In this document: piece by piece, positions 9,430-58,230 of the stretch
How the letters are laid out: every line of letters begins with the position of its first letter
How positions within the stretch are numbered: position 1 is the first letter of the stretch
Assembly: GCA_008632985.1 (NCBI GenBank)
Contig: QPGO01000061.1
Span: 310,001-374,000, forward strand
Source: Psammoneis japonica
Lineage: Eukaryota
Direction of reading: 5' to 3'
Length of the DNA stretch: 64,000 nucleotides
Translations under genes and position numbers: made by a program
Notes under the pieces: model-generated
The model's database searches: none
Told to the model about the DNA's origin: nothing
What the model saw: the letters and a program-made list of their open reading frames with translations, nothing else

Positions 9430-11550
9430 CAGTGGTTGTTGTTGACGACACTGAGACGACACACGCCATGTGTTCTGATTCAAGAGCCACCAGCAGTCTT
9501 TAGCAGTAATCTTGCTGCTGGCTGCTGCCTTTCAAGTGTTCTTCTTGCCAACAGCTGGAAAGCGTTCTTTGCAAGCAGGCCACCAAACCACGACACCAAT
9601 TGTCAACTCCACATGTCACACTCCATCCTGCAGGATTCCACTGTGGAGCATGCACAATCTCTGCCACAAGAACAAGACACCATCTTCATGGTTGCATGCA
9701 GCGCAGCAGGAGACCCCATCTTGTTCCACACAGCTGTGCAGCAGTTGGCGGCACACCACCCTTGTGGGGATGGGCTCCCGTGCTTGCCCCACTCTGGTGA
9801 TCCCCATCACAACTCTTCCAAAATCTCAATGTCAACACACTGACCTGGAATGGTTGGAAAAACCTTGACTTGGTTGAGAGCATCGAGTTGCTGGCTCCGC
9901 CTGCCAGAGCCGACTCTGTGGCAAAAACGAAGTTCCCCGTGCAATCACACCATTTCCACCTTTGCTTGCAAGCAGAGTCCAAGGCAAAGACTGCCAGCCA
10001 GCATCCAATCCATTGATTGTTCCCAAACAGGTTCCTCAAACATTTGCATCTCACCCCACTGCCCAAAGAAATCGTTTCACATGGCTTGCCTCCTTGGCGC
10101 CAAAGTTCCCATCAGCAAGCAAATGCCAAAGACACCAACAAGAAGCAAGACACAGCTTTCTCCCGCTGGAAACAGGATCTTGGTGAGATTGGACTTGGAG
10201 ATGACCCATCCATGGATGACCTCACTGTCTCCCAATTGCGCCGAACCCTTGGAGCCTTTGCAGCAGCAGCTGCCAGGGAAGGCAGAGACACTCCTCCAAA
10301 CGACTCAACATGCTGGTGGCAGGGGCCATCAGCACTGCCACAGATGATGTGGCATTGGCATTCAGGATTTGCAACAGGAAAAATCCACAACTTGACAAAG
10401 ATTGGCAAGCATCTTGCCTTCTGTTGTGGCACCAATGCTGAGGATGCAAGAACCAAGACGGTCAACAGAAACGACAAAAAGTGATCACAGCCACACTCCT
10501 CTGAGTCCTTGCCAGAAACTGTGTGACCTGCAAAGACACAGCCACAACATCAGCAATGCAGCAATCCTGCAAATGCTCCAAGACTGCTGGCAGTTGATGA
10601 GCCAAGCTGCTGACACTCAAGAGTCTCAGCTTCTTTTTCAAGATGGCAGAGAACTCTCACTTTCAGACCCAGACTTGGCCTCAGCAGACATGACATCCAT
10701 TGTGATCACTTTGACTGTGTCATGTGCTGTCTGCACCAATTGCAAGCTGTGGAGCCTGCAATCATCCACCATCCTGTCTGAGATGAGAGTGGCAGGAACA
10801 GCAATCAGAAAGTGGCATTTTGAATTTGGGGTGTGTGAAGCACACAAAATTGGAGCCCATTCCATTTGATCAGGAGCAGCAGTTGAAATGTGTCTCAACA
10901 ACACACCTGTGCATTCCGTCATGTTGGTTGGCATGTGGTCATTAGATGCCTTCCTTTTGCACATCCACAAACAAGTGCAACATTTCAGTGTCAGCATTTC
11001 ATCCCGCATGATCAAACACCAACACTTCTTCACAATCCCAGACTCCAATGCAGAAGATCCAAGAGCAAGAAATCACCATGAAGTCCAAGCCACTCACAAC
11101 AACAATGGCCCATGTCAAGTGCAACTCATGTCTGCAAAACAAGGCATGGAGGCTTTACACTGCACCCTGCCATTCCTTTGAATGAGAGCAGCTCTCCTTT
11201 GTTCCTCAGATTGGCAATCTTCTTGGCTGCCTCAGCTTTTTTTGTCAACAGCCAGGCAACTTTTTTCTTGTGCCAGGTTGCTGAAAGATGCTCCAGCTGA
11301 GTCTGGCAAAATGTTGATTTGTTGGCATTGAAGTTGTGTCTGTTTCTTGAGATTGTTGTCATCATCTTTTGATTTATGACTGAACAAAAGAGAGTGGCAA
11401 GTGGAAAAACCCTGTCCTTGTTGGTGTGCCAGACCCCACTGTGATGTGGCACCCCTTTTTGATCAGCACGTTTGACCCTCAACCAATGATGAGTGCACCC
11501 AAGCTGAACAGCAACTTGTTACCCAAGCCCATCACCACCTCACACGCGAC
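9430..11550 (+). mobile_element. Heavily mutated relic of a tyrosine-recombinase (DIRS/Ngaro-like) retroelement
   Basis: IGAHSI*SGAAVEMCLNNTPVHSVMLVGMWSLDAFLLHIHKQV (10850-10980) matches the YR C-terminal H-S-x-R...GRWxSDAFxxYIR pattern; the block is almost free of TpA and CpG. Boundaries approximate. Confidence 0.7.
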
Positions 11551-13932: not shown

Positions 13933-15306
13933 ATGCATTCTCACCGTTTCTCGGTCGTCCTCATCTGCTGTCTGCTGGTAGAGGCCCTAACGATGAGTAC
14001 CTCCGGCTCTGCTTTTAGTGGCAAACAAAGTGGGGGAGGGAAGAACCTCGTGGTGCTGAGCGATGGTACAGGCATGGAGCTCAAGGGAATGGATAAAAAC
14101 TCCAACGTTCTACGCCTTCTCCGTGTACTATCACGCAACGATGATGAGCAACGTGTTTACTACGATCCTGGTATTGGGACTGTCAAGAGTATCAATCCTT
14201 GGAGTATACTTCGAGCCAAGTTCAGCTCCGTTTTTGGTCTTGCTACCGGACAGGGATTGGATGAGGCTGTCCTTTCCGCTTATACATTCCTCATGACGAA
14301 CTATAAGGAAGGAGATCGCATCTACCTCTTTGGCTTCAGCCGTGGGGCATACACGATGCGCGTCCTTGCTGGATTCATTCATGTCGTTGGACTTCTTCAC
14401 CAAGACCAAGAGAACATTCTCCCATATGCTCTCGTTGCCTACAAGGAAGCAGGAAATGAATACGGCGGAATACCTAAAGACTATCGTTCCTCAATACCAA
14501 AAGAAAAGTTAAAGGCTGAAGCGGAGGCCAAGCGATTGGGAAAGCTTTCCGGAGCGCGACAAGTCGATATTCACTTTGTTGGCGTATGGGACACTGTCAA
14601 CTCGGTTGTTGTGCCTCGGCCCGATCGGTTTTTTATTCCATCGATTCAGAAGCTCCCATACACGAGAGGCAATCCCTCTGTGACGAATTTCCGTCATGCT
14701 TGTGCCATTGATGAGAGACGTCGAATGTTCCGTGTCAATAAATGGTTGTTTCCAAATGGTGAAAAGGTGTCGACCGAGGACGGCCGCGTGCTTAAAACTT
14801 CGACCAAACAGGTATGGTTTCCGGGTTGTCATGGCGATGTTGGCGGCGGATGGGCAGAGGAGAGGAGCGGATTAGCCAAACATGCCATGAAATGGATGGT
14901 TGACGAGGCGACTCAGGAAGGAATAAAGATTGACAATGATTTGTACAAGAAAATCTGTCTTGGTGAGGGAGAATGCGGACCTACAGTCATTGCCGGCGAT
15001 GTAGCTTGTTCACCTCCCAATTCACTTGGCCCGATCAACCACTCTCTCACCTTGGCTTGGAAACCTCTTGAGATCTTTCCAAAAGGAACCATGTGGAAAG
15101 AATGGAACCTCCGGTGGTCATTCCTTGGGTTTTACATTCCATGGGCCGAACCGCGCCCAATCCCTGCTCATCATGAGCTTCATTTTTCCGTCCGCGAGCG
15201 CATGGAAGGAGATCCCACGTACCGTCCGCCCAACGTGATGGCGTACTTGAAAGAGGTCGAGGAGAGTGACTCCCGGGCTCCAACAGAAGTGACACCTCTG
15301 GCCTAA
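13933..15306 (+). CDS. DUF2235 / Tle1-like alpha/beta hydrolase with putative signal peptide
   Basis: LVVLSDGT, YYDPGIGT, LFGFSRGAY, VGVWDTV, RHACAIDERR and VWFPGCHGDVGGG motifs; intronless; ATG at 13933. Confidence 0.9.
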   Translation: MHSHRFSVVLICCLLVEALTMSTSGSAFSGKQSGGGKNLVVLSDGTGMELKGMDKNSNVLRLLRVLSRNDDEQRVYYDPGIGTVKSINPWSILRAKFSSVFGLATGQGLDEAVLSAYTFLMTNYKEGDRIYLFGFSRGAYTMRVLAGFIHVVGLLHQDQENILPYALVAYKEAGNEYGGIPKDYRSSIPKEKLKAEAEAKRLGKLSGARQVDIHFVGVWDTVNSVVVPRPDRFFIPSIQKLPYTRGNPSVTNFRHACAIDERRRMFRVNKWLFPNGEKVSTEDGRVLKTSTKQVWFPGCHGDVGGGWAEERSGLAKHAMKWMVDEATQEGIKIDNDLYKKICLGEGECGPTVIAGDVACSPPNSLGPINHSLTLAWKPLEIFPKGTMWKEWNLRWSFLGFYIPWAEPRPIPAHHELHFSVRERMEGDPTYRPPNVMAYLKEVEESDSRAPTEVTPLA

Positions 15307-15399: not shown

Positions 15400-18300
15400 G
15401 GTCGGAGATGTTGTCCTGCATGAGTGCTGATGATGACGATGTTGTCATGCGGTTTGTCTTGAGGCGGACTCCATTCAATGCAAGTCGTGTCGAATGCCTT
15501 TTTGTCGATTATTTTGGACTTCACCCAAGTTTTCTCTTGTGCTGGCTGGAAGCTGCACTTGCTCAAACAAAGAACAACGACCTTTCTGTTGCACTTGTCG
15601 GCCATTTTTCGGTTTAACGCAGTGTTTTGGCTTTTGTGTTTGGGCGGAGGATGTGGTGTGTTTTCTGTTTGTGAGTGCAACTCTCAAGGTCACAAAACTT
15701 TTAATGTGTCACAGCACATGATGGCGTTAAGAACAACAAGATGGTCAATGAAGCTGCCAAATGCCATGCTGCTCAGTTCTGTGCCACAATGCCAGACACT
15801 GCCCCCCTCATGCAGGACGTTTCTTCTCCAAACAGTTGCAGGTCACTGGCACTTAGAGTGTCCTCGACAAATGAGAGAGTTCAGTCAGTTGGCTCTTCTC
15901 TTTCTTGTCTTGAGCAATGAAAATTTGCACCAAGGCAAATGCAGCATTGCTGCTCACAATGGCAAGTTGGAGAAGCAGATTCTGCCAAAGGATTCTGCTG
16001 CCCTTGCTGACTCAAGTGGTGGGCAGCTCACCTTTCTTGCCAAACACCTTCTCCTTGACCGGACATGCGCTGCCTTGTGCCACAACTTCTGCAGGATGAT
16101 TTTCTGCTGCCAATCTCATTGAAAAGTTGCCAGGGTGTTCTCAGTCTTCTTGCTGCCAGCCTGGCTTGGCTGCCAGCTGCTCACTGTTCTCATTGTGAAC
16201 CCTGCTGGTTTGTGGTGCAAAATGCTTTCTTTTTTTTTTCACAGAAGCTTGGTTCAAGTGCCAGTGGTGGCCCAGCACTGGCCTGCTGCACAGGAGGGCT
16301 GGTGCTAGATGCAACATTGAGATGGAGGCCCCAGCACAGCCAACCAACATGGGAGCTTGCATTTGCCAGCTGGCTGCACTGCTTGTCAAATTAACAACAC
16401 ATCCACAATCTGTGGTTGCCTTGTTGATGCAGCTGTGCCACCAGGGTGGCCTGGCAACTCTTCTCTGGTGGACCCCAGCAAACTCCACAGAGAGAGAGAG
16501 AGAGAGTGGCAATCATTGAGGAGCTGATGCAGAACACTCCTGAGTGCATGAGAGCATGGGTGAACTACATTGGCATGGCAAGGAATTTGCACAGAAAAAA
16601 GTGCAAGGGGTGCAGCAACAGTTGGAGCATGAGCTTGGGCTCAATTGGCCTCAGAGAATGGACAATGACATTTGACATGTGGGGTGAAGTTCTGATTGTT
16701 TCATTTTTTCCCTGTCAAGTGACGGCTTTTGGGATGATGCTGAGTGACACAAACACCATTTGGTGGCATGGCAAGCGGCAATCTTTGAGTCACTCATTTG
16801 TTTGGTTGAAAAACTGGGTGCAGTCCAGCCACAATGATGCACCAACAGCTGCACAAAAGAGCTGCAAACTCTCTTCAATTCAGAAATCTACAAGAGCCAC
16901 TGGAAGGTGCTCCTCTGAGCTTGCGCTGGCAGAATGACAATGCTGAATGAGCACAAAACTTTGAGAAAGCTGGAGAGTTGAGAGAGATGCATTTTTTACA
17001 AGGACTTGCAATGTGTGCTCCTTGCACTCCTCATCAAATTTGTTGTGGCATCAGCATGACAGAAACCATGCCAAAGTCACAAAGATTAAAGCTGCAGCCC
17101 TCGTTGCTGGTCACTTTTCTTGGAGAGAACATGCCCCCAAATCCAGGCCCAAGAGCACACAGCAACTGGTGGCCCAGCTTTCAACATGCACACACACACA
17201 CACACACAGTGCCTGGGTGCCTGCTCTCTTGCTTGGTGGTCATGTGCCTTCTGGTCTCATGTCTGCAACAAGACTTCCTCTCAAGCACAAATCAGTCTGG
17301 AGCAATGTCAGCCACCAGCATGACAGAAAAGTTGGAGCAGCAGTGCCAGCCCCACAGGTGGCAAGTGCTGGTTGGCCTGGATGACTGTCACTTGTGAAGT
17401 CATGCTCTGATGCAGTCCTGTGGCATGTGATGTTTTGAGGGTGAGACATTCCAGCCAATTTTGCCTCTGTTGATTTTTGTTTTGGTTGACAAGCCACTTC
17501 CAACAATGTGCTCACACACCCACCACATTGCAGCCAGCATCCCCACCCTCACTTTGCTTGCCACTCCAAATGACACAACACTCTTGTTGTTTGTCCTCAC
17601 CTTGCATCTGGTCCTGGCTTCTTGTGATCCAGCCAAGAGAAAGCTGCAGCATCCTCACACACAGCTTTTTGCTGTTTGGGCCATGTTCAAAAAATGCACT
17701 TTGCAGAAAGAGCTCAACAAACACAGCTTGGTGCCCCTGCTGAAAGAAGGGTGAGCTGACCAGCACAGAAGAGGGAGTGGAGTGACAGTGCTGCAGCTGG
17801 GCCCTGTGCAAGGCTGTGTGCAGTCAGAAAGCCCAGAGCAGTGTGGCCTGCCAATGCCTTCAACCAAAAAATGACTTTGAGCCTTGACACCAGCTGTCTT
17901 CAATGAGTTGTTTTTACCCTTGTTTTCACTTGAGCAAACACTGTCTGCTTCAAACCAATCTTGAGCAGTTGAAAGGAAATCACACCTGCAACAACAAAAG
18001 GAGCAAGCTTGGAGTGTTCCAGGAAAGCACCAAGCAGGCCACCTGAGGTGCCGCTGTCCACAGTGCATCCAGGACAACAGCAGCACTCAGAAATCTAAGA
18101 ATTCACAACACAGCCACACCCAAAGTGGTGCAAATGAGAGCAGGAAAGAACTTGAGATTTTCCAGGTGAGAAGCACAAAAACTGATTTTTCCCCCCCTCC
18201 AACATGAACACCAGCTGATGGCTGCCTTCTCAGGAGGAGCAGCTGAAGGTGTGTTCCATTGTGCCACAGCAACCTTGAAGAAAAGAGCAGTTGTGTTCTG

Positions 18301-18689
18301 AGACAAAGGTGGGGGGTGGTCACCAGGTGCAGGTGGCACAGCAGCACTGACCATTGTTTTGACAATGATGTGCACAGAAGGCATTTGCCACATGGGGCAG
18401 CAAGTGCTTTGCCACCAACCAAGGACAACATTGTCAGAAATGATGATGCTTGCCCCCCAGCTTGTGCAAGCAGCAACAGGCAAGCTGTCCACAAATGAAG
18501 CCATCTGCTGTTTTGCACTTGCCCGTCTGTTTGTGATCAGCGCTGTTGCAAATGTTGCAATGAAACAAAGCCAGCAGCAGCAACAACAACCATGATTGTT
18601 CATTGCAGTCTCTGCTTTTTCTCAGTGCCATTGTTGGCAGTGCCCCATCTGTGAAAATGGGTGATGATTGCTGCATCATGGGAACCAAC
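15400..18689. other. Unidentified degenerate TpA/CpG-depleted block, left part (target of the Copia insertion)
   Basis: Roughly a dozen TpA in about 3.2 kb by hand count and few CpG; no recognisable domain; continues after the TSD at 25802. Confidence 0.6.
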
Positions 18690-18965
18690 TGACAGGATTT
18701 GAACAGGATTTGGATGCGCGCGAAGTGTCGCGCGCTGTTTAGTTTACCGCGCACAGTTTTGTGTGCTTTAGTTCCGCGCGTTCACGCGCGATGTAGTTTG
18801 CTTTCGAGCCACAAGGCTCACAAGAATAATAACAGTAGCCCGATTATACCGACTTACACGTCTTTCGGCTCCTGTAACGGTCTCTGAGCGGAGACTCATC
18901 TGCTATTTAGACAGCAGTAAGGAGTTATTGTTTGAATTCTTGCCATTTGCCTTCAATTTCTGTCA
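18690..18965 (+). repeat. 5' LTR
   Basis: TGACAGG...CTGTCA, 276 bp, 267/276 identical to the 3' LTR. Confidence 0.97.
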
Positions 18966-19912
18966 GATTAACAGTCTTGCTCATTGTCAACCCATTGAGC
19001 AACCGCCATCGTCGTCGGTGATTTACCAACGACGCTATTTCAATTCTACGTGGACCTCCGTATATATTCTACATACATCGGCAAGTCTACGCGCATTCAA
19101 TACCAGGGCATCGGCAGGAAGTTAACGTCACCGTCAAGTCTCCTTACCGCTGGATATCTGGATTGATTATACTACCTTTGATCGCTGAAGACTTATATTC
19201 AACGGTCATGTCCAAGTCTATCCTTGATCAACATCCCTTGGGTGCACCTGTTCCTCGGTCAACGGTCAAGAACCCTGCACATTCAAGGATCTTAGTCGCT
19301 GAAGACACATGCGCGCATGTGTGTGCATGTCTTCACGGCCAAGAACCTTTATCCACTCTTCGGACTGCGGTTTTGCTGCCACTCTACAAGCACACCGAGT
19401 CCATTGCACCTGATCCCACCCCGGACTGCTGGTGCTCCACAGTTCTGCTAGGTCCACGAGGACGACTGTGAGAGCAAGCAGCCGTGATTGCAGCCTGCGT
19501 TGGGGCGAGGGTGCTTTCCCGCGTTTGTTCGTTCGTCCACAGCGCCCAACGCCTGCGTCAACTGGCCAGCCTGATCGGGAAATCCAACCGACATAAAATG
19601 AGAACGGTTCGGGGGTCTTGTCCACCTCTGGTCAGCTTGCCTGCAGGGGTTTACAACCCGCCACTCTGCTTGCAAGCAACCCAAAGCGCCACCAGCTGCG
19701 GGTTCGGACGTGCCGGCACAACTCTACGGACCGGACAGGAAGTTTGGCACTTGACAACGAACGGGATGACAAAGCCCGGCAACTTCTGATTTTAAGATGG
19801 TTCAAGATTTCAAGTCAAGTCTGTTTCAAGTCAAGTCCATTCTCACCCAAGTTTCGAGTCTGCCTTCACTTCCCAACCAGAATTGACTGTCCTGACACCA
19901 CTTTTGTCTGCC

Positions 19913-22900
19913 ATGGTTCTCACTCGTCAGCAACAAACCGATGGTTTCGAGCACGTTGTTGGAACCGTGCTTGCCCAAGGTGCTGGGAGTCCTCTTCGTT
20001 TGGCTTTGGCCCAAGACGGCACGGACTCGCATCAGGAACTGTTCACGTTCATGCCGTCCCAAATCGACTCGCTTGAGTGCGACAACGGCACTGATGCAAT
20101 CCCTTTGCCCCGTGGTTGCAAGAACATGTCAGCAGCACCAGTTGGTCTGCACATTGTCAAAGCACACAAAGGTCTTGACGTTGCCAACGACTCCTCTTTG
20201 TTCACGCATGACGAGTTCCTTGCCCCGCCTCAGCCCCGACTGCATGTCTTCTGTGTCCATCGGCAGCTCACCCCTTGCACATCCACATGTCACCAACCAG
20301 ACCAAGGCACGCGACCCGGTGCGAGACTTCAAGCGAGGCATCAAGCGTGATCCCACCGCTTTCACGGCTCTCAAATCCGACAAGCAGCGGCACACTTGGC
20401 ACACCTCACTTGTGGCACAAGCCCATGCCCAAGACGTCGAGTGCATTCTAGACTCGTCGTACAAACCGACCAGCCCCGAAGACAAACTGCTCTTTGCTGA
20501 ACAGCAAAAGCACATGTTCGCCGTCTTCGAACGCATCCTTCTCACCGACAAGGGCAAGGCTCTCATTCGCGAAAATGTGGGGTCTTCTGACGCACAGACC
20601 GTCTGCCGCTCCTTGTCTGAGTGCGCGCTTGCCTCCACCCGCGCATCTGTCGAGTCCTCCACCCTGCTCACGCACCTCACCACCGCACGTCTTGGTGATG
20701 GCACTTGGAAAGGTCCGACCCACGGGTTCATCCTTCATTGGCAAGATCAGTTGCGCAAGTGCGAGGCACTCATCCCGGCCAGTGACCACTTCTCTGAAGG
20801 ACAGAAGCGCGTCATGCTCGAGAATGCCGTGCACCCTGTCGAGGAACTCCGTGCTGTCAAGAACCAAGCTGATCAGCATCGTACGCAGAGTGGCAAGAGC
20901 CTCACATGCGATCAATGCTGTGGCTTGCTCCTCTCCGCGGCAGCTCAGTGCGACAGCACGTTTCAACCCAAGACGACACCTCGAGCTCCCCGACGCGCCA
21001 CATGCGCACACGACGTCTGCTCCGAGGAACCGTCCGACGATGTGTTCTACGACATTGACAGCGACGTTGACGTCCTTCAAGCCAATGCTGCCTGCACCCG
21101 CGGTCCCAGCCTCACCGGTGTCCAATGGAGACGTCTCCCTCCCGACCACCAACGGCTCTGGGATTCGTTGCCCGATTCCTCCAAGGCGATCATCCTTGAG
21201 CATTCTCGTCCGCCTCCCCGCAACCCGCGAGCCAGCAACTGCCATGAGTCTGTTACGGCCAACCTTCACGACCAACACCTTGGGAGTGACGGTGATGTCA
21301 ACTTGTCCAACACGACTCCTGCTGACTGTGGTGACCCCGCTGCACATGTGGACGCCACTTCGGATAATCCCATCCTGGCGCACCTCACCAAGCGCAAGCC
21401 ACTGCCACCCGGTGATCTGCAACGTCTGTTGTCTCCTAACCAAGCCCCCAATGCCAGTCGACCGGGGCCATCCGCCGCTTCCTCTACCCCGCCAGCTTCT
21501 GCAGATGACATGGAACTTAACGGCCGCACTTGCCGCCGCGTCAACAACCACAATGTCATTTGCTCTGCCTCTGCTCATCGCTCCACACGCACTGGCGCTC
21601 TAGTCGATCGTGGGGCCAACGGCGGCATTGCTGGCGACGACGTTCGCGTCATTGCACGCACCTCTCGCCAAGTCGATGTTCAGGGCATTGACGATCATCA
21701 GTTGGTGGACATCCCCATTGTCACCGCTGGTGCCGTCATTGAGACCCAGCGTGGTCCCGTCATCGCCATCCTCCATCAGCACGCACACACGGGAAAGGGC
21801 AAGACCATCCATTCCTGCGGCCAGCTCGAATGGTGCAAACAGGATGTCAACGATCGCTCTGTCAAGGTGCCCAACGGCTTGCAACGCACTGCCACTCCTG
21901 ATGGCTATGTCATCCCCATTGACATCAAGGCTGGCCTGCCTCATGTTGCCATGCGACCTTACACTGACGCCGAATGGGACACCCTGCCCCATGTCATCCT
22001 CACCGGTGATGACACATGGGACCCTTCCGTCCTCGATCACTCTGTCACTGACGACGATCAGTGGTGCGACGCGATCTCTGACCTGCAGGACGATCCCACT
22101 GCCAACCTGTTTGACGAATGCGGCAACTGCCGTCACCGTGTCGTTGTCAACGAGACCATCTTGTCCGCTTCCTTGTCTGCCGATCACGCGTCCGCCCTCG
22201 ATGATCACCTCATTCCGAACGACGACGTGTTCTACGAGTGTCATCTGCATGCGATTGACCCCAAGGGCGATGACGTTCCACCTCCGGAGCGCACTGCACA
22301 GCCCAAGGACCCCCCTTCGAGTCTCTTCGGCCTTGCTTTGGCTTCCCACCTGCCGATGCGGTCCGTCGTACTTTTGACTGCACCACGCAGTGCGCCCGCA
22401 TGCCCGCCGGTGCACACCTTCGCAAGGCCTGCAAATCACCCAACCCCGCCCTCAATGTGCACCGCCGCAACGAGCCCATCGCCACTGACACCGTTCATGC
22501 CGACACCCCGGCCGTCGACTCTGGTTGCACCAGCGCCCAACTGTTTGTTGGCACCGAGTCTACCGTCACTGACGTCTACGGCACTAAGACGGACAAAGAG
22601 TTTGTCAACACACTCGAGGATCAGATCCGTGAACGTGGTGCCCCATCCAAACTCATTAGCGACCGTGCTCAAGTTGAGATCAGCAACAAAGTGCTCGGGA
22701 TCCTGCGCGCCCTCTTCATCTCCAGCTGGCAAAGTGAGCCTCACCAGCAACACCAAAACTTTGCCGAACGTCAACACCAGACCGTGAAGCGCATGGCGAA
22801 CACTGTCATGGACCGTTTTGGTTCGCCCCCCACACATGGCTGCTGGCGCTCATGCACGTGTGCTTCACACTCAACCACACAGCGTCCCCACGTCTCCACT

Positions 22901-25520
22901 GGCGCACGCCCCTCGAGACTCTCACTGGATCCACCCCGGACATCAGCCCATTGCTTCGCTTTCACTGGTGGGAACCAGTGCACTTCCACCTCGATGACTC
23001 CGATTGGCCGTCCGAATCCCGTGAGTTGCGTGGACGCTTCGTTGGCATTGCTGAGCACGTCGGCCACCAGATGACCTTCAAGATCTATCTGACGAGACTC
23101 AGAAGATCCTCTGCCGGTCCAACGTTCGCTCCGCCACCCCGATCCTGCCGTTCGAAACCTGCGTCTTGATCCTCCTGATGGGGAGCCACCTGAACCCATC
23201 ATCAAATCTCGCCATGACGACAACCCCGTCGATTCTCCTGATGGGGAGATCAGGACACCCAAGATGCCAGTTTTCGATCCGCAAGACATCATTGGACGTA
23301 CCTTCCTCATGCAGCCACAAGAGGATGGACAACGCCACAGAGCTCGCATCGTCAAGGCCGTTGAAGACCACGAATGGAAAGTGAACGGCAATCCTGAGCT
23401 CACTAAGTTCGTCTGCTCTGTCAACAATGACGAATACGAGGAAGTCCTTGCCCACAATGACATCATGAATCACATTGAGCGAGAAGACGAAGACACCACC
23501 ATTTGGAAATTTCGACGCATCGGTCACACGAAGGACCTCTGAAGCCTCACGACCCAACCTGGAAAGGCTCAAGCTACAACATCATGCTTGAATGGGAAAG
23601 TGGGGAGATCACGTCCGAGCCTCTTGCCATCATCGCCAAGGACGACCCCGTCACCTGTGCCATCTATGCACGAGAGAACGGACTCCTCGACACGGATGGC
23701 TGGAAGCGGTTCCGCACTATCGCGAGGCGCCAAAAGAAGCTATTTCGCATGGCCAACCAAGCCAAGCTTCGCTCCTTCCGCACTGCACCTCGCTACAAGT
23801 ACGGACACGAAGTTCCCCGGAACTACAAACACGCCATGTCACTAGACGAACGCAACGGCAACCGCAAGTGGGGAGACGCAACTAATCTCGAGTGGACCAA
23901 CTCACGAATACGAAGTCTTCCATGACTGCGGGCCCTTCAAGTCTTCCACTCCTCCTGCGGGACACAAGAAGATCCGAGTGCACCTGGTGTGCGACGTGAA
24001 ACACGACGGTCGCCACAAGGCACGACTCGTAGCCGACGGGCACCTCACGGACGTACCTGTCGACAGTGTCTACTCCGGAGCAGTCTCCCTCCGTGGCCTT
24101 CGGCTGATGATTTTCCTGGCCGAACTCAACGAGCTGGAGACATGGGCCACCGACATTGGCAATGCCTGCCTTGAAGCCACCACCAAGGAGAAGCTTTACA
24201 TTGTAGCTGGACCCGAATTTGGCAAACTCGAAGGACACATCCTTGTCATCCACAAGGCACTGCATGGACTGCGCAGCTCCGGTCTCCGCTGGCACGAGCG
24301 CTTCGCCGACTGCCTGCGAGCTGAAGGCTTCTTCCCCTGCCGCGCCGAACCCGACATTTGGATGCGCAGGAACGGCGACCACTGTGAATGCATTGCCGTT
24401 TATGTGGATGACCTCGCCATTGCCATGAAGGACCCTCAATCTTTCGTCGACACTCTCACGGAAAAGCACAAGTTCAAGCTCAAGGGCACGGGACCCATTG
24501 AGTTCCATCTGGGTTGCGACTTTTCTCGGGACCCCGACGGAACCTTGTGCCTGTCTCCGCGCAAGTACATCGAGCGCATGGTCGACAGCTGCGCCCGACT
24601 GTTTGGGGAGAAACCTGCCACCAACACCCTGTCACCTCTAGAGAAGGGTGACCACCCCGAACTGGACACTTCCGAACTGCTGGGATCCAATGGCATTCAC
24701 AAGTTCCAGTCTCTTGTTGGTTCACTCCAATGGGCAGTGTCCCTTGGTCGAATTGACATTGCCACGGCTGTCATGTCACTCTCTAGCTTCCGAGCTGCGC
24801 CCCGTCAAGGCCACTTGGATCGTGCCAAACGCGTCTGTGGGCACCTCTCCAAGATGCGACACGGTGCTCTCCGCGTTCGCACGGAAGAGCCCGACTGTTC
24901 GGATCTCCCTGCTCCGGCATGTGAATGGATGCATTCCGTGTGTGGTGAAGCAGAAGAGATGATCCCGAAGGACGCTCCACCGCCCCTTGGCAAGTTCGTC
25001 ACTGCCACCCACTACGTCGATGCAAACTTGTGCCATTGCATGCTCACCGGATGCTCTGTCATGGGAATGCTCCACTTCCTCAACAAATTCCCGGCTGATT
25101 GGTTCTCCAAGAAACAAGCCACCGTGGAGACTGCAACCTACGGATCTGAATTTGTTGCCGCAAGGAATTGTGTTGAGCAGATTGTCGACCTGCGCATCAC
25201 CCTGCGCTGCCTTGGCGTCCCGATCCGCAATGTTAGTTACATGTTCGGTGACAACAAGTCGGTTGCAGACAGTGCCACCATCCCGCACTCCAAGTTACAC
25301 AAGCGACACACCGCACTGTCGTTCCACCGTGTGCGTGAGGCAATTGCCTCTGGTTGCCTTGAGTTCCACTTCATCGAAGGCTCCCGCAACCCTGCTGACA
25401 TTCTCAGCAAGCATTGGGGTCACTCCCAAATCTGGGACCTTCTCCGCCCCCTCATGTTCTGGAACTTCATTCCATCCGAAGTCGAATCTGTTTCTGTGGC
25501 TCCTCAAGCAAACTGGGGAG
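19913..25520 (+). pseudogene. Copia gag-pol, frameshifted and Tyr-depleted
   Basis: gag FKRGIKRD; protease LVDRGANGG; integrase ATDTV..D, ISDRAQVE, SEPHQQHQN; RT KHDGRHKARLVA, YVDD; RNase H YVDANL, TYGSEF, FGDNKS, NPADILSK; several frameshifts. Confidence 0.95.
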
Positions 25521-25796
25521 TGACAGGATTTGAACAGGATTTGGATGCGCGCGAAGTGTCGCGCGCTGTTTAGTTTACCGCGCACAGTTTTGTGTGCTTT
25601 AGTTCCGCGCGTTCACGCGCGATGCAGTTTGCTTTCGAGCCACAAGGCTCACAAGAATAATGACAGTAGCCCGATTGTGCCGACTTGCACGTCTTTCGGC
25701 TCCTGCAACGGTCTCTGAGCGGAGACTCATCTGCCATTTAGACAGCAGCAAGGAGTCATTGTTTGAATTCTTGCCATTTGCCTTCAATTTCTGTCA
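25521..25796 (+). repeat. 3' LTR
   Basis: Copy of 18690-18965 with 9 substitutions, all at TpA sites. Confidence 0.97.
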
Positions 25797-25801
25797 CCAA
25801 C

Positions 25802-27480
25802 TTTTTGAGGGATGCAGGCTTTTGGGGTGTGCATCAGTGGAGAAGAAGGCTGCTCCATTTGTGGCCAGAACAAGCGCCATTGCAGCCCATGCTTTGGATG
25901 CTTTTTTGATTCTTTGAGCCCACAGAAGGTTTGGCAGTGCAGCTGCATGAGCCCCTGTTCCCTTTGGACCCACACAGGGTGAGATCTACCCAGACGCCAC
26001 TTGCATGCCCCAAAACTTTGACCCTGATGCTGAAAGAAACAATGACAGGAGAGCCAAGCTTGTGCCACTGAAAATCCCGCCAGCTGAGTTGACAATCCAC
26101 CCTGCATCTTTAAAATCCAGCAAGGGTGGCAACTTGACAGCAATGTGTGGCTGTGTGGACATGACCTTTGAAGTTGGCCCAGCACAAGATGGTGATTTGC
26201 GGCAGTTTTTCACTGATTTGAAGGGTGAGTTGTTGGCCAAAACATGCAAAAAGTCTTTGGACAGGGATGTCAAGGTTTCAAAGAAAGGCCAACACATGCA
26301 ATCTGAAGTTTTTGTGCAATGAATTTCAAAATGCAACAAGGAAGGAAGATGAGAAGACAGCTGTGACAGGCTGATCAAAGTCATTTGTGACAAGTGCTCT
26401 GCTTGAGTGCTTCAAAAACTTGAAGCACCAAAGCACAGCTGCCCCAGCCAAAGGAGAGGAGGCACAAACAAAAGTCCCACCCCCTCCAAAGGGAATCAAT
26501 GCCTGCAGCAATCACTGCCCCAGTGAATGAAGAAAGGTGCTGGCAGAGCCAACTTGAGCCTTCAAAGCAGTGCTGCTTCTGCATCAAGGAACCGACTCTT
26601 GCCTCAGACAAGCTTCTCAAGCTCAGGGCATGACTGCCCCCCCACTTTGAAGATGTGGTGCCTGCTGAGACTTCAGGAGCCATGACCAAAGACTTTTGCA
26701 CAACTGTGCACTTGAGCTGCTTGCCAATGAGTGCCATCATTGTGGGGTTCACTGCTGCAGCACCGACAGCTTTGCTCAAAGTTTCCAAGATGAAAACAAA
26801 CGCGGTGCTGCAAAAGAAACAAGGTTGGCTCTCATTTGCAAACACCCTGCAGCACCAAGACAAAAATGAAATGAACTTTGAGAATGACAAACTGATGAAC
26901 TTTGTTGAAACATTCTGTGCAGAGACCTCACAAAGCCAGCAGCTGGCTGTTGTTTGCCAACAGCAGCAAGCCCCCAAGAAGCATCAGAATTTGGGGAAAA
27001 GGCTTGCTCATGTTTTTTTTGACTCAGCACCCAGCTGCCACTGTCAACAATCACTGCCCAAGCTTCAAAATATGATGGCTGGAGCACCTCATGTCAGTGG
27101 ACAAGCTGAGTGGGCAAAGACCAAAATCCCGTCACAGACAGGGTGTTTGCCACCAGAGCCCGCCCCCCCCAAGAAGAGAAGCCTTCAAGTGTGGGAGCTG
27201 GCTGTGAAGTTCTTGTCAAAAAGGCAACAAGAAGCAAGCCCATTGACAAAAAGACCATTGAGAATCAAAGTGTTGCTGGCCTGTGTCCAGAGTTGCATGG
27301 CTGTTTTGCAGCAAACTTTGAACAAAAACTCTCGCACTGCTCTCAAAGTTTGCCAGTGCACACAGCACAGGAGTCCATGAGGAGCTCTCAGGATTTGTTC
27401 TTGTGATTTTCTCATGAAGAATGGAACAGGAAATCAGAAAATTGGTGAAAGGACCATTGAGATGCCACCCAGCAAAAAGT
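25802..27480. other. Unidentified degenerate TpA/CpG-depleted block, right part
   Basis: Same composition as 15400-18689 and contiguous with it across the TSD. Confidence 0.6.
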
Positions 27481-27795
27481 GACGCCGCCGGGATGCATCA
27501 TGGTGCCGCAGGTTTCATCGCTTGGATGGAAGGAGGTGTCTTTCTTGTGTTCGCGTCCGTTTGAATCAGGATTTTGGGGGCGGGTTCCCAACCCGGATAA
27601 CAAACGTTCCAAAAAAGATATTCCAAAGATCCATCAATTGCGACACAACATGTCGCTAATTCTTCGATGACGATGGCGGCGAAACACGAAATAGTAAGGC
27701 CAAGTCACAAAGCTCTCACAAGCCTAGAAATGACGAATGGTCCATGGAAGCACTGGTAAAGCCATCACAAAAGGCACTGCAAAAAAAAAAGCATC

Positions 27796-28389
27796 ATGAA
27801 GGTAATTTCTGGAGGTCAAACCGGCGCCGACCAGGCCGCGTTATTGGCGGCTCGACAAGTGGGCCTCGAGACGGGTGGCACCGCACCCGAAGGATTCCAA
27901 ACCGAACGAGGCCCCATGCTGGAACTCCGTGATGTCTATGGTCTCTCTGCAGAAGGAACGTGCCAGAGTCGAACCATAAAGAATGTTAATGACTCGGATG
28001 GCACCGTGGTTCTGCTTGTGCATGATGGATCGGACGGTAGTTCCAAAACCATTGGATGGGCAAGCAAGCGGTGCTGGGAGGACTCCTTTGAATCGAAATT
28101 TCAAGGCGGGCATCGACCTGTGCTGGTGTTGCATGCGGAGAATTTGGAGGAGGATCAGCTGTCTGAATCTGCCCTGAAAATTGTGGAGTTTGTGCGACGA
28201 TTCAACATTGGTACGCTCAATGTTGCCGGCCATCGACAGTCGGGTGCGTTTATTCCGCCATTCTACACGGGAAAAGCACCCTACGACTACCAACAACGCT
28301 GTTTTGATCTGTTGCTTCTTGCCTTCAAGTCACTTGTTAGAAACGACGAGGACGAGAGAAGCGAGAGGAAGAATGATGGAGCGGATTGA
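27796..28389 (+). CDS. Circularly permuted YpsA-type SLOG protein (the 'putative molybdenum carrier' family)
   Basis: ISGGQTGADQAAL..GG.AP.G...E.G, RT.KNV.DSDGT and LNVAGHR motifs. Confidence 0.85.
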   Translation: MKVISGGQTGADQAALLAARQVGLETGGTAPEGFQTERGPMLELRDVYGLSAEGTCQSRTIKNVNDSDGTVVLLVHDGSDGSSKTIGWASKRCWEDSFESKFQGGHRPVLVLHAENLEEDQLSESALKIVEFVRRFNIGTLNVAGHRQSGAFIPPFYTGKAPYDYQQRCFDLLLLAFKSLVRNDEDERSERKNDGAD

Positions 28390-29197: not shown

Positions 29198-32100
29198 TTA
29201 GGGACAGTCCGGTACCGAGCCATCACTAGAAGGGCTTCTGGGAGGGTCGACACAAACAGGAGCGGACGTTGGCCCATAGTTGGTAGAACTGCAATCGAAA
29301 TTGCCACCACCCGCGGCACCGTTGCAACAATAGTCGTCACCAGTTGTTTGGCAAGTGTAAATACCACCAACCGTGCTGCTTGCAACATCGGGACAAAATG
29401 GCAAATTCTGAACATTATCTCCAAAGGCGCAAAACGTTGATGGGTGCGGCGGAGTGTTTTGGTCCGCTTTAAGACAGCCTGTTCCGCATGTGGTGCTGCA
29501 CGTTGAAGTGCCGAGCGCTCCAAGTGCGACCTTGACGCATCCGCTGGTTGCAGGGCAGCATTTCGCTCTATTGTTGTTGTCGGTACTGACAATCTCGTAT
29601 GCATCATCACACAAAGTCTCTTTCGCTGTGGTGCATAGTCCTGAACCCTGACAGACAGAATTGACACAATCCTCGTTGGAAGCGCAATCAGTCTCGTCGT
29701 TGCACGAGGGGCATGGGTTATTACACCTTCCATTACTTGTATCGCACGCCGCCGAGCAGTCGCAGTCAAAGTTACAACTTTCGCCTTGGTTATTTCTTTT
29801 GGTCAAGCAAAAGTTTGAATCGCACTCACACTCGCAGGTATTCGGGTTGCAAGTTGCTCCCGCATTGTCACCAGGGCGTCCACCGCAGTCATTGTCTTGA
29901 CTGCAAGATTCGAGCAAGCCGTCGGCGTCAAACTTCGTCACGCATTGTCCAGTAGTAGGTGAATCAGAGGGAACTCCCGACGGAACATCACTTGGCAAGC
30001 TCGATGGAACGTCACTCGGTGACTGCGACGGAGTTTGGCTGGGCATGTCAGAAGGAGCATTCGACGGGATGCTGCTCGGCGCGCTTGATGGAACGTCACT
30101 TGGCATGAGTACTGTGGGACTTTGACTTGGTGAATCGGACGGAATTCCCGACGGTACGTTGCTCGGCGAGCTCGAAGGCATGTCACTCGGTGATTGCGAA
30201 GGAGTCTCGCTGGGCTGATCAGATGGAGCACTCGACGGGACGTCACTTGGTGTCGTTGACGGAACGCTCGAGGGAACGTCACTCGGCGTGCTGGAAGGCT
30301 CAACGCTAGGCATTGCCGATGGCACGTCGCTCGGAGCACCACTGGGCAACATACTAGGTTGACTGGAAGGAGTGTCACTGGGTACAGAAGATGGTTCCTG
30401 GCTAGGTGTATCAGACGGAACCCCCGACGGTACGTTGCTTGGCGAGGTAGAAGGCACACTGCTCGGTGATTCCGAAGGAGTCTCGCTGGGCTGATCAGAC
30501 GGAGCACTCGACGGGACGTTGCTTGGTGTCATCGATGGAACGCTTGACGGAATGTCACTTGGCATGCTTGAAGGCTCCATGCTAGGCATTGCTGATGGCA
30601 TGTCGCTCGGAGCACCACTGGGCAACATGCTAGGTTGACTGGAAGGCATGTCACTGGGTACAGAAGATGGTTCCTGGCTAGGTGTATCAGACGGAACCCC
30701 CGACGGTACGTTGCTTGGCGAGGTAGAAGGCATGCCACTCGGTGATTGCGAAGGAGTCTCGCTGGGCTGATCAGATGGAGCACTCGACGGGACGACACTT
30801 GGTGTCGTTGACGGAACGCTCGAGGGAATGTCACTCGGCGTGCTGGAAGGCTCAACGCTAGGCATTGCCGATGGCACGTCGCTCGGAGCACCACTGGGCA
30901 ACATACTAGGTTGACTGGAAGGAGTGTCACTGGGTACAGAAGATGGTTCCTGGCTAGGTGTATCAGACGGAACCCCCGACGGTACGTTGCTTGGCGAGGT
31001 AGAAGGCATGCCACTCGGTGATTGCGAAGGAGTCTCGCTGGGCTGATCAGATGGAGCACTCGACGGGACGACACTTGGTGTCGTTGACGGAACGCTCGAG
31101 GGAATGTCACTCGGCGTGCTGGAAGGCTCAACGCTAGGCATTGCCGATGGCATGTCGCTCGGAGCACCACTGGGCGACATGCTGGGTTGTTTGGAAGGCA
31201 TGTCACTGGGTACAGAAGATGGTTCCTGGCTAGGTGTATCAGACGGAACCCCCGACGGTACGTTGCTTGGCGAGGTAGAAGGCATGCCACTCGGTGATTG
31301 CGAAGGAGTCTCGCTGGGCTGATCAGATGGAGCACTCGACGGGACGGCACTTGGTGTCGTTGACGGAACGCTCGAGGGAATGTCACTCGGCGTGCTGGAA
31401 GGCTCAACGCTAGGCATTGCCGATGGCATGTCGCTCGGAGCACCACTGGGCGACACACTAGGTGACTGGAAGGATGTCACTGGGTACAGAAGATGGTTCC
31501 TGGCTAGGTGTATCAGACGGAACCCCCGATGGTACGTTGCTTGGCGAGGTAGAAGGCGCACTGCTCGGTGATTCCGAAGGAGTCTCGCTGGGCTGATCAG
31601 ACGGAGCACTCGACGGGACGTTGCTTGGTGTCGTCGATGGAACGCTCGAGGGAACGTCACTCGGCATGCTTGAAGGCTCCGTGCTAGGCATTGCTGATGG
31701 CATGTTACTCGGAGCGCTGCTGGGCAACACGCTAGGTTGACTGGAAGGAGTGTCACTGGGTACAGAAGATGGTGCCTGGCTAGGTGACTCAGACGGAACT
31801 CCCGACGGTTCATTGCTTGGAGAGTTCGAAGGCGCTTCGCTCGGGGATTGCGATGGATTCTCGCTGGGCTGATATGAAGGAGCACTCGATGGGACGTTAC
31901 TTGGTGTCATCGATGGGGCGCTCGACGGAACGTCACTCGGCGTGCTGGAAGGCTCAGCAGTGGGCGTTGCTGATGGCATGTCACTCGGAGCACTGCTGGG
32001 CGACATGCTGGGTTGTTTGGAAGGCATGTCACTGGGTATAGAAGATGGTTCTTGGCTGGGTGTGTCAGACGGAACTCCCGTCGGTACATTGCTTGGCGAG

Positions 32101-55869: not shown

Positions 55870-58230
55870 CGACAATGGTTGGGCCATGGCAGCCGCCGGC
55901 TCAGGGCTGTTATATATTTCTATTCAAGTGTGACATCGCAATGGACACGTGCTCTATACTGGGCTGCGTTTGAGCTTGACGGCATCTACAGTGGAACTTG
56001 AAGTGTTGTTGCAGTGGGCAGCATTGGATCAATTAAAAAGTGGGTAAAGTTGCAATGTCCCAAAACAACAAAAGTACAACAGGATGGATTAAATGAAGAG
56101 CCCATTGCTGGGACAGATCCAAGTGTCTCTTTTGGGAAGATCCATGTCATTGTCAGAGGATGGAAGCATTGTCAGTGTTGGCTCATTGGGGAGTGATGCC
56201 AATGGATTGTCTGACTCCAGTGAGCAAATGACAAACTAAATGTGAACAGTGTTGTGGAAAAGAGGTGCTTTTAAAGCCAAGCAAAGAAGATGTGTCTGCA
56301 GACAGGAAGTGTTGTGCGCACCGCATTGCTCCCATCATGTCACCGGGGGGGGGGTGACCAACTGATGTGGTCATGAGTGGAAAGGGTTGCCAAAAATGAT
56401 TTGAAGAAGAAGCAAGAATGGGCTGAGAGTCATTTGTCAATTGTTGCTCACAGCTGGGCCATGTTCATGAGAAGAAAGAGTCTGCTTCTGCTGGGAAAAG
56501 TGACAACAAAACAGTTGAGCAGGGGGGAAGCAGGAGGTGCTTTGGTGCACTGCCCAACTCCTCTGCAGACAACATGTGTGCAAAAGTGCTCCACAACATT
56601 TGGACACCCTCAGTGCAACACCAGTGACTGGCTCTGGGTCCAACAAACTACAGTTGTCCATCAAGGCTGCACAGCCCAAAAAATCAGCACCTTTGTTCAT
56701 TTTCAGCACCTTTAAAAAAGATCCAGCACCATTTCAAAAACAGAGCACCTTCAAATGCACTTGTTTTTCACACATGTTTTGTGAGAAATTGACTGAAATT
56801 AGCCACATTGTTGCCAAATTGTGACTCATCTGTGGAAAAACAGTCCTGTTTGTTGAATGCAATGGATGAGCTCCAGTGTCCAAGTCTCACATTTTGATGC
56901 TGGAGTGCCTCCGTTGCATTTGACGAACAGCATTTGTGCGATTGTTGTGTTGTTGTTCCATTGGGTGCTGTGTGCAGGCAGTGGCTTGGAATTTGTCAGA
57001 ATGCAGAAAGTTTTCAAGGTGCTGAAAATTTAAAAAAAAAGCAATGACATGATTTTCTTTTGAAGCAATGATTTTTAAAGGTGCCAAGTGCAAATTTGTC
57101 ATTTGCAGCCACTCCTGCAACTCCAGCTCCCTCTGGCAAGGTAAAACTTCAAGTGGTTCTTTTGGCAATTTTGTGTCCTTGTCTTGTGATGGCAGTGTCA
57201 TGGCTGTCAGAGCAAACAATCAATGGTCCTCTTCTTCCAAGCCCTGCTGTGCTGTGTTGTTGTGCAATGATGCAATCCAATTGCCCAACAATGGACGCAG
57301 TTTGGCCAAGAATTTGTTGGACAAGCCAGCGGCAGTGCTTTTGGTGAGTCTGTTTCATCAAATTGCAGTGGCACAATTCTTGCAGTTGGAGCTGATGAAA
57401 ATGAAAGTGGCAGAGTGAATGCCAGCCATGTCCAGGTGTTTGAACACAACTCAGCATTGAATTGTTGTTTGGTCCAACTTGGTGGTGACATTGTTTGACA
57501 AGATGCTGGTGTGATGAATTTGGTTTTTCTGCACTGCTCTTGGACACGGGAGACATTCTCTTGCTGTGGGAGCTCATTTGGATGACATGGAAAATGACAC
57601 CCAGATGACCATGGCTTCTCATCCCGAAGCTAACTTGGACAAAACACTCACCAGCCAAGCCAACAACTGCACTGGGTTTCCCATTTCCTTGAATTCACAG
57701 GGAACCACCATCAGCATTGAAAGGGATGCAGGTCAAGCATTGGCACACAGTGCAACACTGCATTGTCAAAATGGCAAATTGTGGATGATTGGCTTTTCTC
57801 TTGATGACAGCACCTTGATTGTGGCTGCAGGTGCATGCAGAGACAACAAGAGAGTTCTTGCTGTTTGTGCAACTGCTCAACATTGAAATGGAGTGAATGT
57901 GGCCAAACATTTTGACACAACAGTCTGACAATGGTTTTGGGTGGTCAGTGTCATTGAGTGGCAATGGAAACGTCTTGGTGGTTGGCAGTTGTTGGCATGA
58001 CATCAATGGACTGGTCCATGTGGGTCAAGTTTGAATCTTTCAGCATGACAGGGCAATGCAGATGAAGGAAGCAAGTTGAAGATCCTCTAAATGGTGAGAC
58101 TGAAGACAATGGTTCAGGTGTTCTGTGTCCTTGTAGAACGACGGAAGCATTGTTGGAGTTGGTTCACGGGGGGCTGACGTCAACGGTGACAAGTCTGGAT
58201 CTGTGTGAGAATTGTATTTTGCATTTCATC
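55870..58230 (+). pseudogene. Degenerate, TpA/CpG-depleted paralog(s) of the FG-GAP propeller region
   Basis: 55915-55955 nearly matches 55430-55470; relics FGNFVSLSCDGSVMAV, FGWSVSLSGNGNVLVVG and DGSIVGVG...NGDKSGSV. Confidence 0.75.

Follow-up and report, generated by a model that had tools for sequence, protein, structure and literature searches.

The 64,000-nucleotide stretch of Psammoneis japonica DNA analysed here (NCBI GenBank assembly GCA_008632985.1, contig QPGO01000061.1, positions 310,001 to 374,000 of the forward strand; hereafter the window) contains a long terminal repeat (LTR) retrotransposon of the Ty1/copia type, which was placed by repeat search, LTR alignment, and Pfam search at positions 18690-25797, with its coding interior at 19913-25520. 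Judged from its sequence, this element has almost certainly been subjected to hypermutation specific to the TpA step and running from TpA to CpA or TpG, by which about three quarters of its ancestral TpA were lost. The observed/expected ratio (o/e) of TpA in the coding interior was 0.18 (46 TpA), compared with 0.33-1.00 in 79 related metagenome loci and 0.84 in L001, the metagenome locus that encodes, at 99.5%, the closest protein relative of the element (P0122). A larger finding, absent from an earlier note on this DNA, was the presence of sequence almost free of both TpA and CpG around the element and elsewhere in the window. Taken as a whole, the data are probably best described by a defective CoDi-like copia element with an inherited footprint of TpA transitions, produced by a process that acts on DNA.

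Loss of tyrosine and of TpA in the element

The earlier note, made from the letters and their translations, had proposed that systematic replacement of Tyr by Cys or His, accompanied by Val to Ala and Ile to Thr or Met changes, fixes the direction of mutation. All 14 peptide strings quoted in it were present in the translated frames at 21774-25429. The eight in-frame segments of the element were aligned to 77 homologous intact polyproteins of 1800-1960 amino acids (aa), and columns were called conserved when at least 80% of these 77 homologues agreed. The element agreed with them at 670 of the 756 conserved columns and differed at 86, including 12 changes from Tyr to Cys and 11 from Tyr to His. 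At the 40 conserved Tyr columns, Tyr was found 13 times, Cys 12 times, His 11 times, Phe three times, and Trp once. Conserved Tyr was thus changed at 27 of 40 columns (68%), whereas the next most affected residues, Ile and Val, were changed at 6 of 32 and 8 of 50 columns, respectively, and every other residue at 19% or less (Fisher test, 27/40 for Tyr versus 59/716 for all others, p = 2e-18). The residue of the element occurred in none of the 77 homologues at 19 of the 23 Tyr to Cys/His columns and in one to six homologues at the other four. When the reverse transcriptase (RT)/RNase H open reading frame (ORF) was compared on its own with 120 other homologues, 30 changes were detected at 312 conserved columns, nine of which were Tyr to Cys/His.

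Counted against all other changes relative to intact pol proteins, as the earlier note had suggested, the loss of Tyr therefore stood out, with 23 of 40 columns changed to Cys or His. The Val and Ile changes were also present and used the expected codons (GCA and ATG), but they were few and not systematic: Val to Ala occurred at 3 of 50 conserved Val columns, and Ile to Thr and Ile to Met at one each of 32 conserved Ile columns. The overall content of Val, Ala, Ile, Thr, and Met was about the same as in L001. In contrast, the element had 20 Tyr codons among 1770, compared with 71 among 1831 in L001, while Cys codons numbered 50 versus 17 and His codons 88 versus 73. All Tyr codons begin with TA, and conserved tyrosines were accordingly turned into His (CAY) or Cys (TGY).

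The same change was evident at the DNA level. The codons of the element were threaded onto L001, giving 1717 aligned codons with 63% nucleotide identity. Only 12% of the 233 TA sites of L001 were kept in the element, which had CA at 69 and TG at 46 of them, whereas other dinucleotides were kept at 34-57%. In the reverse comparison, L001 had CA at two and TG at two of the 45 TA of the element, so that 115 TA>CA/TG sites stood against four in the opposite direction. TA across codon junctions was found 16 times in the element and 127 times in L001, and the TTA, CTA, ATA, and GTA codons together fell from 52 in L001 to 10. AA>AG changes (40/281) were not in excess over AG>AA (31/233), indicating that a preceding T is required and that the rule is TpA, not A alone. 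Both strands were affected, as seen from the similar numbers of Cys and His at conserved Tyr columns, from the occurrence of both TG and CA at former TA sites, and from four TG and five CA among the LTR differences described below. The choice between CA and TG depended only weakly on the flanking bases. Retained TpA was poor in NTAT and ATAN contexts, with a 3' T fraction of 0.11 versus 0.34 in L001 (57 sites). Fifteen of the 60 TpA left in 19250-25797 lay in a cluster at 23575-24204, and the abundant family contigs had the same cluster. GC skew was considered as a sign of strand-specific editing and rejected, as the excess of C over G is native to the clade.

The copy is also broken by other means. 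Its frame path (2, 0, 2, 1, 0, 2, 1, 2) contains seven frame changes, that is, at least seven frameshifts, while no stop was found in 1770 in-frame codons. No new stops are expected, because TA>CA/TG cannot create one (TGA arises from TAA alone, which is already a stop), and because TAA and TAG are removed, long open frames appear in every phase on both strands. The proposal in the earlier note that the element was inactivated by missense rather than nonsense changes was thus correct as to the missing stops but incomplete, since the frame changes break the copy as well. At the places where the frame changes, alignment of sequencing-run contigs showed that other family copies have one or two extra bases, and the shorter state of the window accounted for 38-92% of summed depth at the places listed.

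A comparable footprint was detected in two other sequences. L070, a 2363 bp marine metagenome contig from a different copia family (63% protein identity), had a TpA o/e of 0.33 and carried Tyr at 4, Cys at 4, and His at 8 of 16 conserved Tyr positions, compared with a median of zero Cys/His in other loci. When changes were polarised with three relatives (L045, L044, and L041), 37 of its 191 private changes were at TA (T>C 20, A>G 17), compared with 4 of 182 (three and one, respectively) on the control branch, L041. L045 and L044, which are 80% identical to L070, were unaffected. In the first search of 120 proteins, P0072 had Cys or His at 7 of 18 conserved Tyr columns. The loci were fetched with two peptide patterns, one of which contains Tyr, and mutated copies are consequently under-sampled. 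Six further loci (L017, L004, L040, L006, L075, and L014) combined a CpG o/e of about 0.16-0.24 with a TpA o/e of 0.49-0.64, which is the footprint of CpG methylation decay alone and indicates that the two losses occur separately.

Sister copies, LTRs, and single-copy patches

Contigs from four sequencing runs of one sample (X1-X4) were aligned to the window. In X1, 14142 contigs fell on the element, and their summed depth over it was 70,000-108,000, a figure that does not represent copy number, whereas the word depth of the flanks was 54-64. About one tenth of all contigs in three small runs also fell on the element, and the family is clearly very abundant. Long contigs from X2-X4 matched the window copy at 97.6-100% over the interior. 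At 20353-21254, only two differences were found in 902 bases, although the window has five TpA there against about 40 predicted by the density in L001. Since flanking bases only weakly set the choice between CA and TG, such nearly identical mutated sister copies point to common descent.

Variable places among the copies in X1 comprised 84 A>G, 90 T>C, 78 C>T, and 70 G>A changes and about 40 transversions. Of 369 variable places, 41 were listed, 31 of them inside the element. These 31 included four linked pairs in which the window had CA and other copies TG, or the reverse; eight places with TA in other copies and CA or TG in the window; four with CA in other copies and TA in the window; two with CA versus CG; and nine other changes. 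At position 20118, TA made up 85% of summed depth. A sister copy with CA where the window has TG, or the reverse, fits two different single steps from TA. These paired alternates, the Tyr conserved in the 77 intact relatives, and the ratio of 115 to four sites all support the direction from TpA to CpA/TpG.

The earlier note had held that the same Cys/His residues in active family members would speak against this direction. Many sister copies did share the mutated sequence, but they shared the frame-breaking state too and so do not count as intact active elements. The direction therefore stands. Read in this way, the sequences indicate that the mutations were mostly inherited from a defective, proliferating lineage rather than made at this locus. 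That lineage was presumably copied in trans, using proteins from intact elements.

The two LTRs were 97% identical, and all nine differences had TpA in the 5' LTR and either TpG (four) or CpA (five) in the 3' LTR. With 15 TpA (o/e 0.81), the 5' LTR was TpA-rich and unmutated relative to the 3' LTR. Reverse transcription alone should yield two identical LTRs. Counted in 250 bp bins, TpA numbered 14 and 19 in the two bins from 18750 (19 in 19000-19249) and then 0-6 from 19250 to the end of the element. At 18971-19598, the long family contigs differed from the window by 5-9% with an additional seven to eight gaps, and this divergence from the abundant contigs supports a proposed takeover of the 5' LTR and leader from another subfamily. 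The insertion is young, as its target duplication is perfect, its LTRs differ at TpA sites only, and the sample still contains an empty site. The latter was represented by one X1 contig, at flank depth, that joins 18683 to 25796, indicating that the insertion is young or heterozygous.

Dinucleotide counts along the window revealed three patches in single-copy DNA, one of which contains the insertion site of the element (Table 1, patch 2). In their four TA- and CG-free cores (7131 bp in total), the TA o/e was 0.04 and the CG o/e 0.07, whereas the remainder of the window had values of 0.56 and 0.97, respectively. CA plus TG reached 228.9 per kb in the patches versus 150.7 in the background, whereas the total of pyrimidine-purine steps was unchanged (235.9 versus 244.3 per kb), indicating that TA and CG were converted to CA/TG by transitions. 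The patches were single-copy in X1, and its contigs differed from the window nine times in about 3.7 kb to the left of the element and three times in about 2.2 kb to its right. Among the nine listed differences, four were TA or CG versus CA/TG. Because the empty-site contig carries the patch sequence, patch 2 is older than the insertion. In the left half of patch 1 (9507-10472), TpA was gone while about 20 CpG remained. Together with the intact CpG of the element (o/e 0.93), this suggests that TpA loss is faster or earlier and CpG loss slower.

In patch 3, a protein-level check confirmed degenerate FG-GAP repeats with homology to the gene next to it (51335-55777), and by its sequence this patch appears to be a decayed host-gene duplicate and not a retroelement. 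BLAST of purine/pyrimidine-recoded patches against the window gave mostly noise with meaningless E-values, and pointed only to the FG-GAP homology of patch 3. Rfam and tandem repeat searches of patches 1 and 2 detected neither a family nor a repeat. Lacking TAA and TAG, the patches contain long spurious ORFs on both strands.

Nature and origin of the process

Patches with almost no TpA or CpG in single-copy DNA argue for a process at the DNA level. The substrate of such a process would be double-stranded chromosomal DNA in silent or repeated regions, where an enzyme would change a base of the TpA step on either strand. Oxidised thymine, in the form of 5-hydroxymethyluracil (5hmU) or 5-formyluracil, is able to pair with G. 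Adenine might be deaminated to hypoxanthine and read as G, or thymine might be oxidised to one of these two bases and then mispair with G. Ordinary decay of methylated CpG would follow more slowly, and when both processes had been completed nearly every pyrimidine-purine step would be CA or TG, as in the three single-copy patches. A broader proposal, which we regard as possible rather than probable, is that this diatom and at least one other marine protist have a chromatin-directed mutator that converts TpA to CpA/TpG on both strands in silent, repeated, or duplicated DNA, a mirror image of fungal repeat-induced point mutation that makes no stops, perhaps through thymine modification by an oxidase of the TET/JBP type or through adenine modification. 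With methylated-CpG decay added, the two self-complementary pyrimidine-purine dinucleotides would both disappear, leaving a lasting scar of silencing composed of CA and TG only.

According to the available passages of a study of the TET/JBP-associated 5hmU of dinoflagellates (PMC11572971), thymine is replaced by this base preferentially in the dinucleotides TA and TC, and the modification is concentrated in repeats and overlaps 5-methylcytosine. The preference for TA, the repeats, and the overlap with 5-methylcytosine match the dinucleotides and the kind of DNA affected here; however, the lineage is different, and those passages report no mutational footprint.

Because the mutated state is inherited, the element alone cannot decide between change at the DNA level and editing at the retrotransposition stage. 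The main rival explanation is that a TpA-specific deaminase of the TadA/ADAT-like kind edits genomic RNA (A>G) and minus-strand cDNA (T>C) during retrotransposition, and that edited copies are remobilised in trans and lose more TpA in each cycle. We consider this unlikely, although several points favour it: the affected sequence belongs to a very abundant retroelement family, its mutated state is inherited and graded among copies, T>C is in mild excess over A>G (69:46), and a 3' LTR edited after plus-strand strong-stop copying could diverge from the 5' LTR. Low TpA loss beside the 5' LTR and high loss further 3' would also fit minus-strand DNA that stays single-stranded for the shortest time close to the primer-binding site, an expectation drawn from APOBEC3G gradients in human immunodeficiency virus; nevertheless, TpA density near 19250 changes stepwise and not gradually. 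Moreover, RNA and cDNA would need nearly equal editing rates (Cys 12 versus His 11), the patches are single-copy and not obviously retro-derived, one being a degenerate copy of a host gene, and we know of no TadA/ADAT-like TpA-specific editing enzyme in diatoms. Hyperediting of double-stranded element RNA by an ADAR-type enzyme, followed by reverse transcription, is very improbable. Retroelements can produce both sense and antisense RNA, and A>G makes up one of the two kinds of change observed; however, only sense RNA is reverse transcribed, so that A>G alone would be expected on the transcribed strand, whereas T>C was at least as frequent (69 versus 46; His 11 versus Cys 12). ADARs accept a 5' A as well as U, while here the 5' neighbour was strictly T and AA>AG showed no excess. 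The single-copy patches would also be left unexplained, and to our knowledge ADARs occur only in animals.

The remaining alternatives concern the direction or the reality of the change. If C>T mutation at CpA/TpG, as in fungal repeat-induced point mutation (RIP), had made TpA in the 5' LTR and in the relatives, the TpA-poor state would be original. The LTR pair taken alone (TA versus CA/TG at nine of nine differences) is exactly the outcome of fungal RIP; yet the 77 intact polyproteins have Tyr, 19 of the 23 Cys/His columns are shared by none of them, the broken frames sit in the TpA-poor copy, the paired CA/TG alternates need TA as a common start, and the polarised changes of L070 run from TA to CA/TG. 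This direction can be dismissed, because RIP-like CpA>TpA change would have created exactly the tyrosines conserved in all intact relatives. Native composition, through selection against TpA/UpA (codon usage or RNase avoidance) or through GC-biased gene conversion, is extremely unlikely. The clade is indeed C-rich (C 0.314 and G 0.221 in the L001 ORF) and the background TpA o/e in the window is 0.56, but residues conserved in all intact relatives were destroyed and the TpA o/e of the element is lower than in any of the 79 relatives. Under biased gene conversion, A/T>G/C changes in general should be more frequent, not only the TpA ones, and the patches should have kept their CpG. Base modifications cause systematic consensus errors in nanopore assemblies, and miscalling of such bases at TA and CG in long-read data could in principle give an artefactual pattern; the four runs come from one sample and are possibly the assembly's own data, and the best run contained just 68% of the sampled 31-mers of the element. 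We judge this explanation highly unlikely as well. The X1 contigs (31-letter word depth about 56-62, the longest being 315 kb) reproduced the patches with only the 9 + 3 differences given above, which noisy reads would not do, the signature recurred in the unrelated L070 contig and in the likewise unrelated protein P0072, and missing 31-mers are expected if the insertion is absent or heterozygous in the run, as the empty-site joint implies.

The DNA-level process that we prefer is also faced with several contrary points. Mutation has spared the 5' LTR and about the first 300 bp of the leader but not the 3' LTR, and our explanation of this asymmetry, most likely gene conversion or cDNA recombination with another subfamily, is ad hoc. 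As the state is inherited, the copy reveals neither the place nor the time of mutation, and reverse transcription in an earlier cycle could be its origin. The excess of CA over TG (69:46, binomial p = 0.04) is a mild strand bias, which would not be expected of a purely symmetric process. With only 63% DNA identity to L001, saturation affects many of the aligned sites. The element shows no CpG depletion (o/e 0.93), so the link between TpA loss and CpG loss is provided by the patches alone. No Pfam family was found in patches 1 and 2 in a scan of 51 ORFs, 22 of them from patches, and these patches had no homology to the 113 other ORFs of the window, nor was there any between patches. The signature was present in just one of the 79 metagenome relatives and one of the 120 proteins of the first search. 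Finally, the four runs would not confirm the sequence independently if they are the assembly's own data.

Fungi and vertebrates both have hypermutation directed at transposons (RIP with C>T in the former, APOBEC3 with C>T on cDNA in the latter), and we regard the process described here as a variety of transposon or repeat hypermutation that could prove categorically new if its chemistry is confirmed. It resembles RIP of Neurospora and other fungi in its both-strand transitions at one dinucleotide across repeats, in the killing of a transposon, and in the skewed dinucleotide profile. RIP is set off by duplicated sequence, operates before meiosis, and depends on enzymes of the RID/DIM-2 type, RID being methyltransferase-like; the degenerate host-gene duplicate in patch 3 is suggestive as regards duplication, though no more than that. 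However, RIP turns C:G into T:A, mostly CpA/TpG into TpA, makes DNA AT-richer, and creates stops, whereas here TpA became CpA/TpG (115 sites versus four), Tyr was lost rather than gained, the DNA became GC-richer, and no stops could arise. In addition, the mutated lineage kept multiplying, and the organism belongs to a different kingdom. APOBEC3 likewise produces context-specific transitions over a retroelement that are inherited by integrated copies, possibly with a 5'-3' difference in load. Its substrate is C in minus-strand cDNA alone, so that the resulting G>A changes at C:G pairs are strand-asymmetric, while here T:A pairs were changed on both strands and in non-retroelement DNA as well. 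ADAR A-to-I editing shares the A>G change but leaves the T>C half unexplained, and the neighbour rule here was strictly TpA. Decay of 5-methylcytosine at CpG matches the CG>TG/CA half of the patches and leaves TpA untouched; the element has kept its CpG and lost most of its TpA, so the two processes can occur separately.

A search of the open full-text literature, which covered neither subscription journals nor supplements, brought up no report of hypermutation directed at TpA, whether in diatoms or in other organisms. Look-ups by term in PMC2806351, bioRxiv 10.1101/2025.10.24.684338, and PMC3239186 likewise gave no passage on such a pattern. A TpA-linked process of the A:T>G:C type would bring both a new chemistry and a new eukaryotic lineage, one of major primary producers in the ocean, to this type of mutation, and it raises the testable question of whether T or A is modified at TpA in diatoms. 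If it serves defence, it blunts the proteins of the element, yet copies that borrow proteins from intact elements still spread. The long false ORFs on both strands can mislead gene prediction, and LTR-based dating can be misled as well. Patches with no TpA and no CpG would provide a simple, sequence-only marker for silent chromatin in such genomes.

Structure of the element and neighbouring sequences

The coordinates of the element and of the patches are collected in Table 1.

Table 1. Positions in the window of the retrotransposon, its parts, and the patches depleted of TpA and CpG.
Feature	Position	Strand	Basis
Target-site duplication CCAAC, left copy	18685..18689	+	Read off the sequence; repeated after the 3' LTR
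5' LTR, 277 bp, TG...CA ends	18690..18966	+	Repeat search, alignment, dinucleotide counts
Leader, 5' LTR to gag start	18967..19912	+	Dinucleotide counts, contig comparison
Gag-like and protease-like polyprotein part	19913..22330	+	Comparison with P0122; ATG at 19913
Integrase-like part	22310..23135	+	Aligns with residues 789-1064 of intact P0122
Linker, integrase to RT	23141..23892	+	Frames 2 then 1, alignment to P0122
RT and C-terminal RNase H-like part	23903..25477	+	Pfam RVT_2, identity to P0122
Purine-rich run AACTGGGGAG	25509..25520	+	Adjoins the 3' LTR in the polypurine-tract position; putative function
3' LTR, 277 bp	25521..25797	+	Alignment to the 5' LTR
Target-site duplication CCAAC, right copy	25798..25802	+	LTR-flank alignment
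Patch 1	9507..11520		Dinucleotide counts along the window
Patch 2, left of insertion	15865..18689		Dinucleotide counts; single-copy depth; 99.7% agreement with X1 contigs
Patch 2, right of insertion	25803..27483		Dinucleotide counts, contigs; sharp right edge at 27483
Patch 3	56090..57971		Dinucleotide counts; degenerate FG-GAP homology

The gag/protease-like part was read in frame 2 to about 20077 and in frame 0 from about 20310. It contains a DRGANGG motif at 21606-21626, which we take to be of the protease type; a Pfam search of the protease part gave no match. The integrase-like part ran through frames 2, 1, and 0 in succession, with the string ATDTVHAD at 22481-22504. It aligned upstream of the RVT_2 domain of P0122 (1338-1554), and no integrase family of Pfam was matched in either protein. 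The RT segment was open in one frame without a stop and was 75% identical to P0122; its residues 18-229 matched RVT_2 (PF07727) with E = 4.9e-26 and 5.9e-26 in two Pfam scans. Seven full-length queries detected no copia homology in the window outside the element, and no tRNA was found by Rfam in the 64-kb window.

The 240 protein relatives listed were 54-75% identical to the element and came nearly all from marine or metagenome sequences, with one from Cylindrotheca (66%), and many of them were uninterrupted polyproteins of about 1850-1950 aa. The element therefore appears to be a diatom Ty1/copia element of the CoDi-like type, a label that reflects similarity alone. It agrees with the CoDi copia elements of diatoms, as far as these are described in the portions of PMC2806351 available, in its LTRs, 5-bp target duplication, RVT_2 domain, and, among the relatives, a polyprotein of about 1850 aa, but differs from them in that the window copy is defective and TpA-depleted. 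In L001, positions 1-2537 begin with the last 207 codons of another copy, and the ORF of the next copy starts at 2537, indicating that the elements lie in tandem or that the contig is circular or permuted. When viral contigs were queried with the RT protein, none of nine pattern matches was confirmed, and an exact 24-base LTR pattern had no match in metagenome contigs.

The rest of the window was gene-dense eukaryotic DNA, in which Pfam detected kinase, cNMP-binding, ankyrin, XPG, and FG-GAP domains. Degenerate FG-GAP homology extended over 56090-59830, 3' of the FG-GAP gene, partly within patch 3 and partly in normal DNA with stops, and this stretch looks like a decayed tandem paralogue. The ORFs at 51335-55777 and 61335-64000 are large paralogues with 86-91% protein identity, about 10 kb apart, and both contain long arrays of 24-bp (eight-residue) tandem repeats, at 52868-54300 and 63000-64000, respectively; these arrays have a high GC content and hardly any ApT. 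A second GC-rich block, at 29928-32460 (minus-strand ORFs 29201-33374), consisted of about ten tandem copies of a 276-bp unit within ORFs that matched the PT (Pro/Thr) disordered repeat of Pfam, and was unrelated to the retrotransposon. Patch 2 was bordered on its left by an ORF at 13837-15303 with a strong match to the catalytic domain of a Tle1-like phospholipase of the type VI secretion system (E = 8e-83), lying amid eukaryotic DNA. An ORF matching the circularly permuted YpsA SLOG family (27760-28386, E = 2e-26) began where patch 2 ends.

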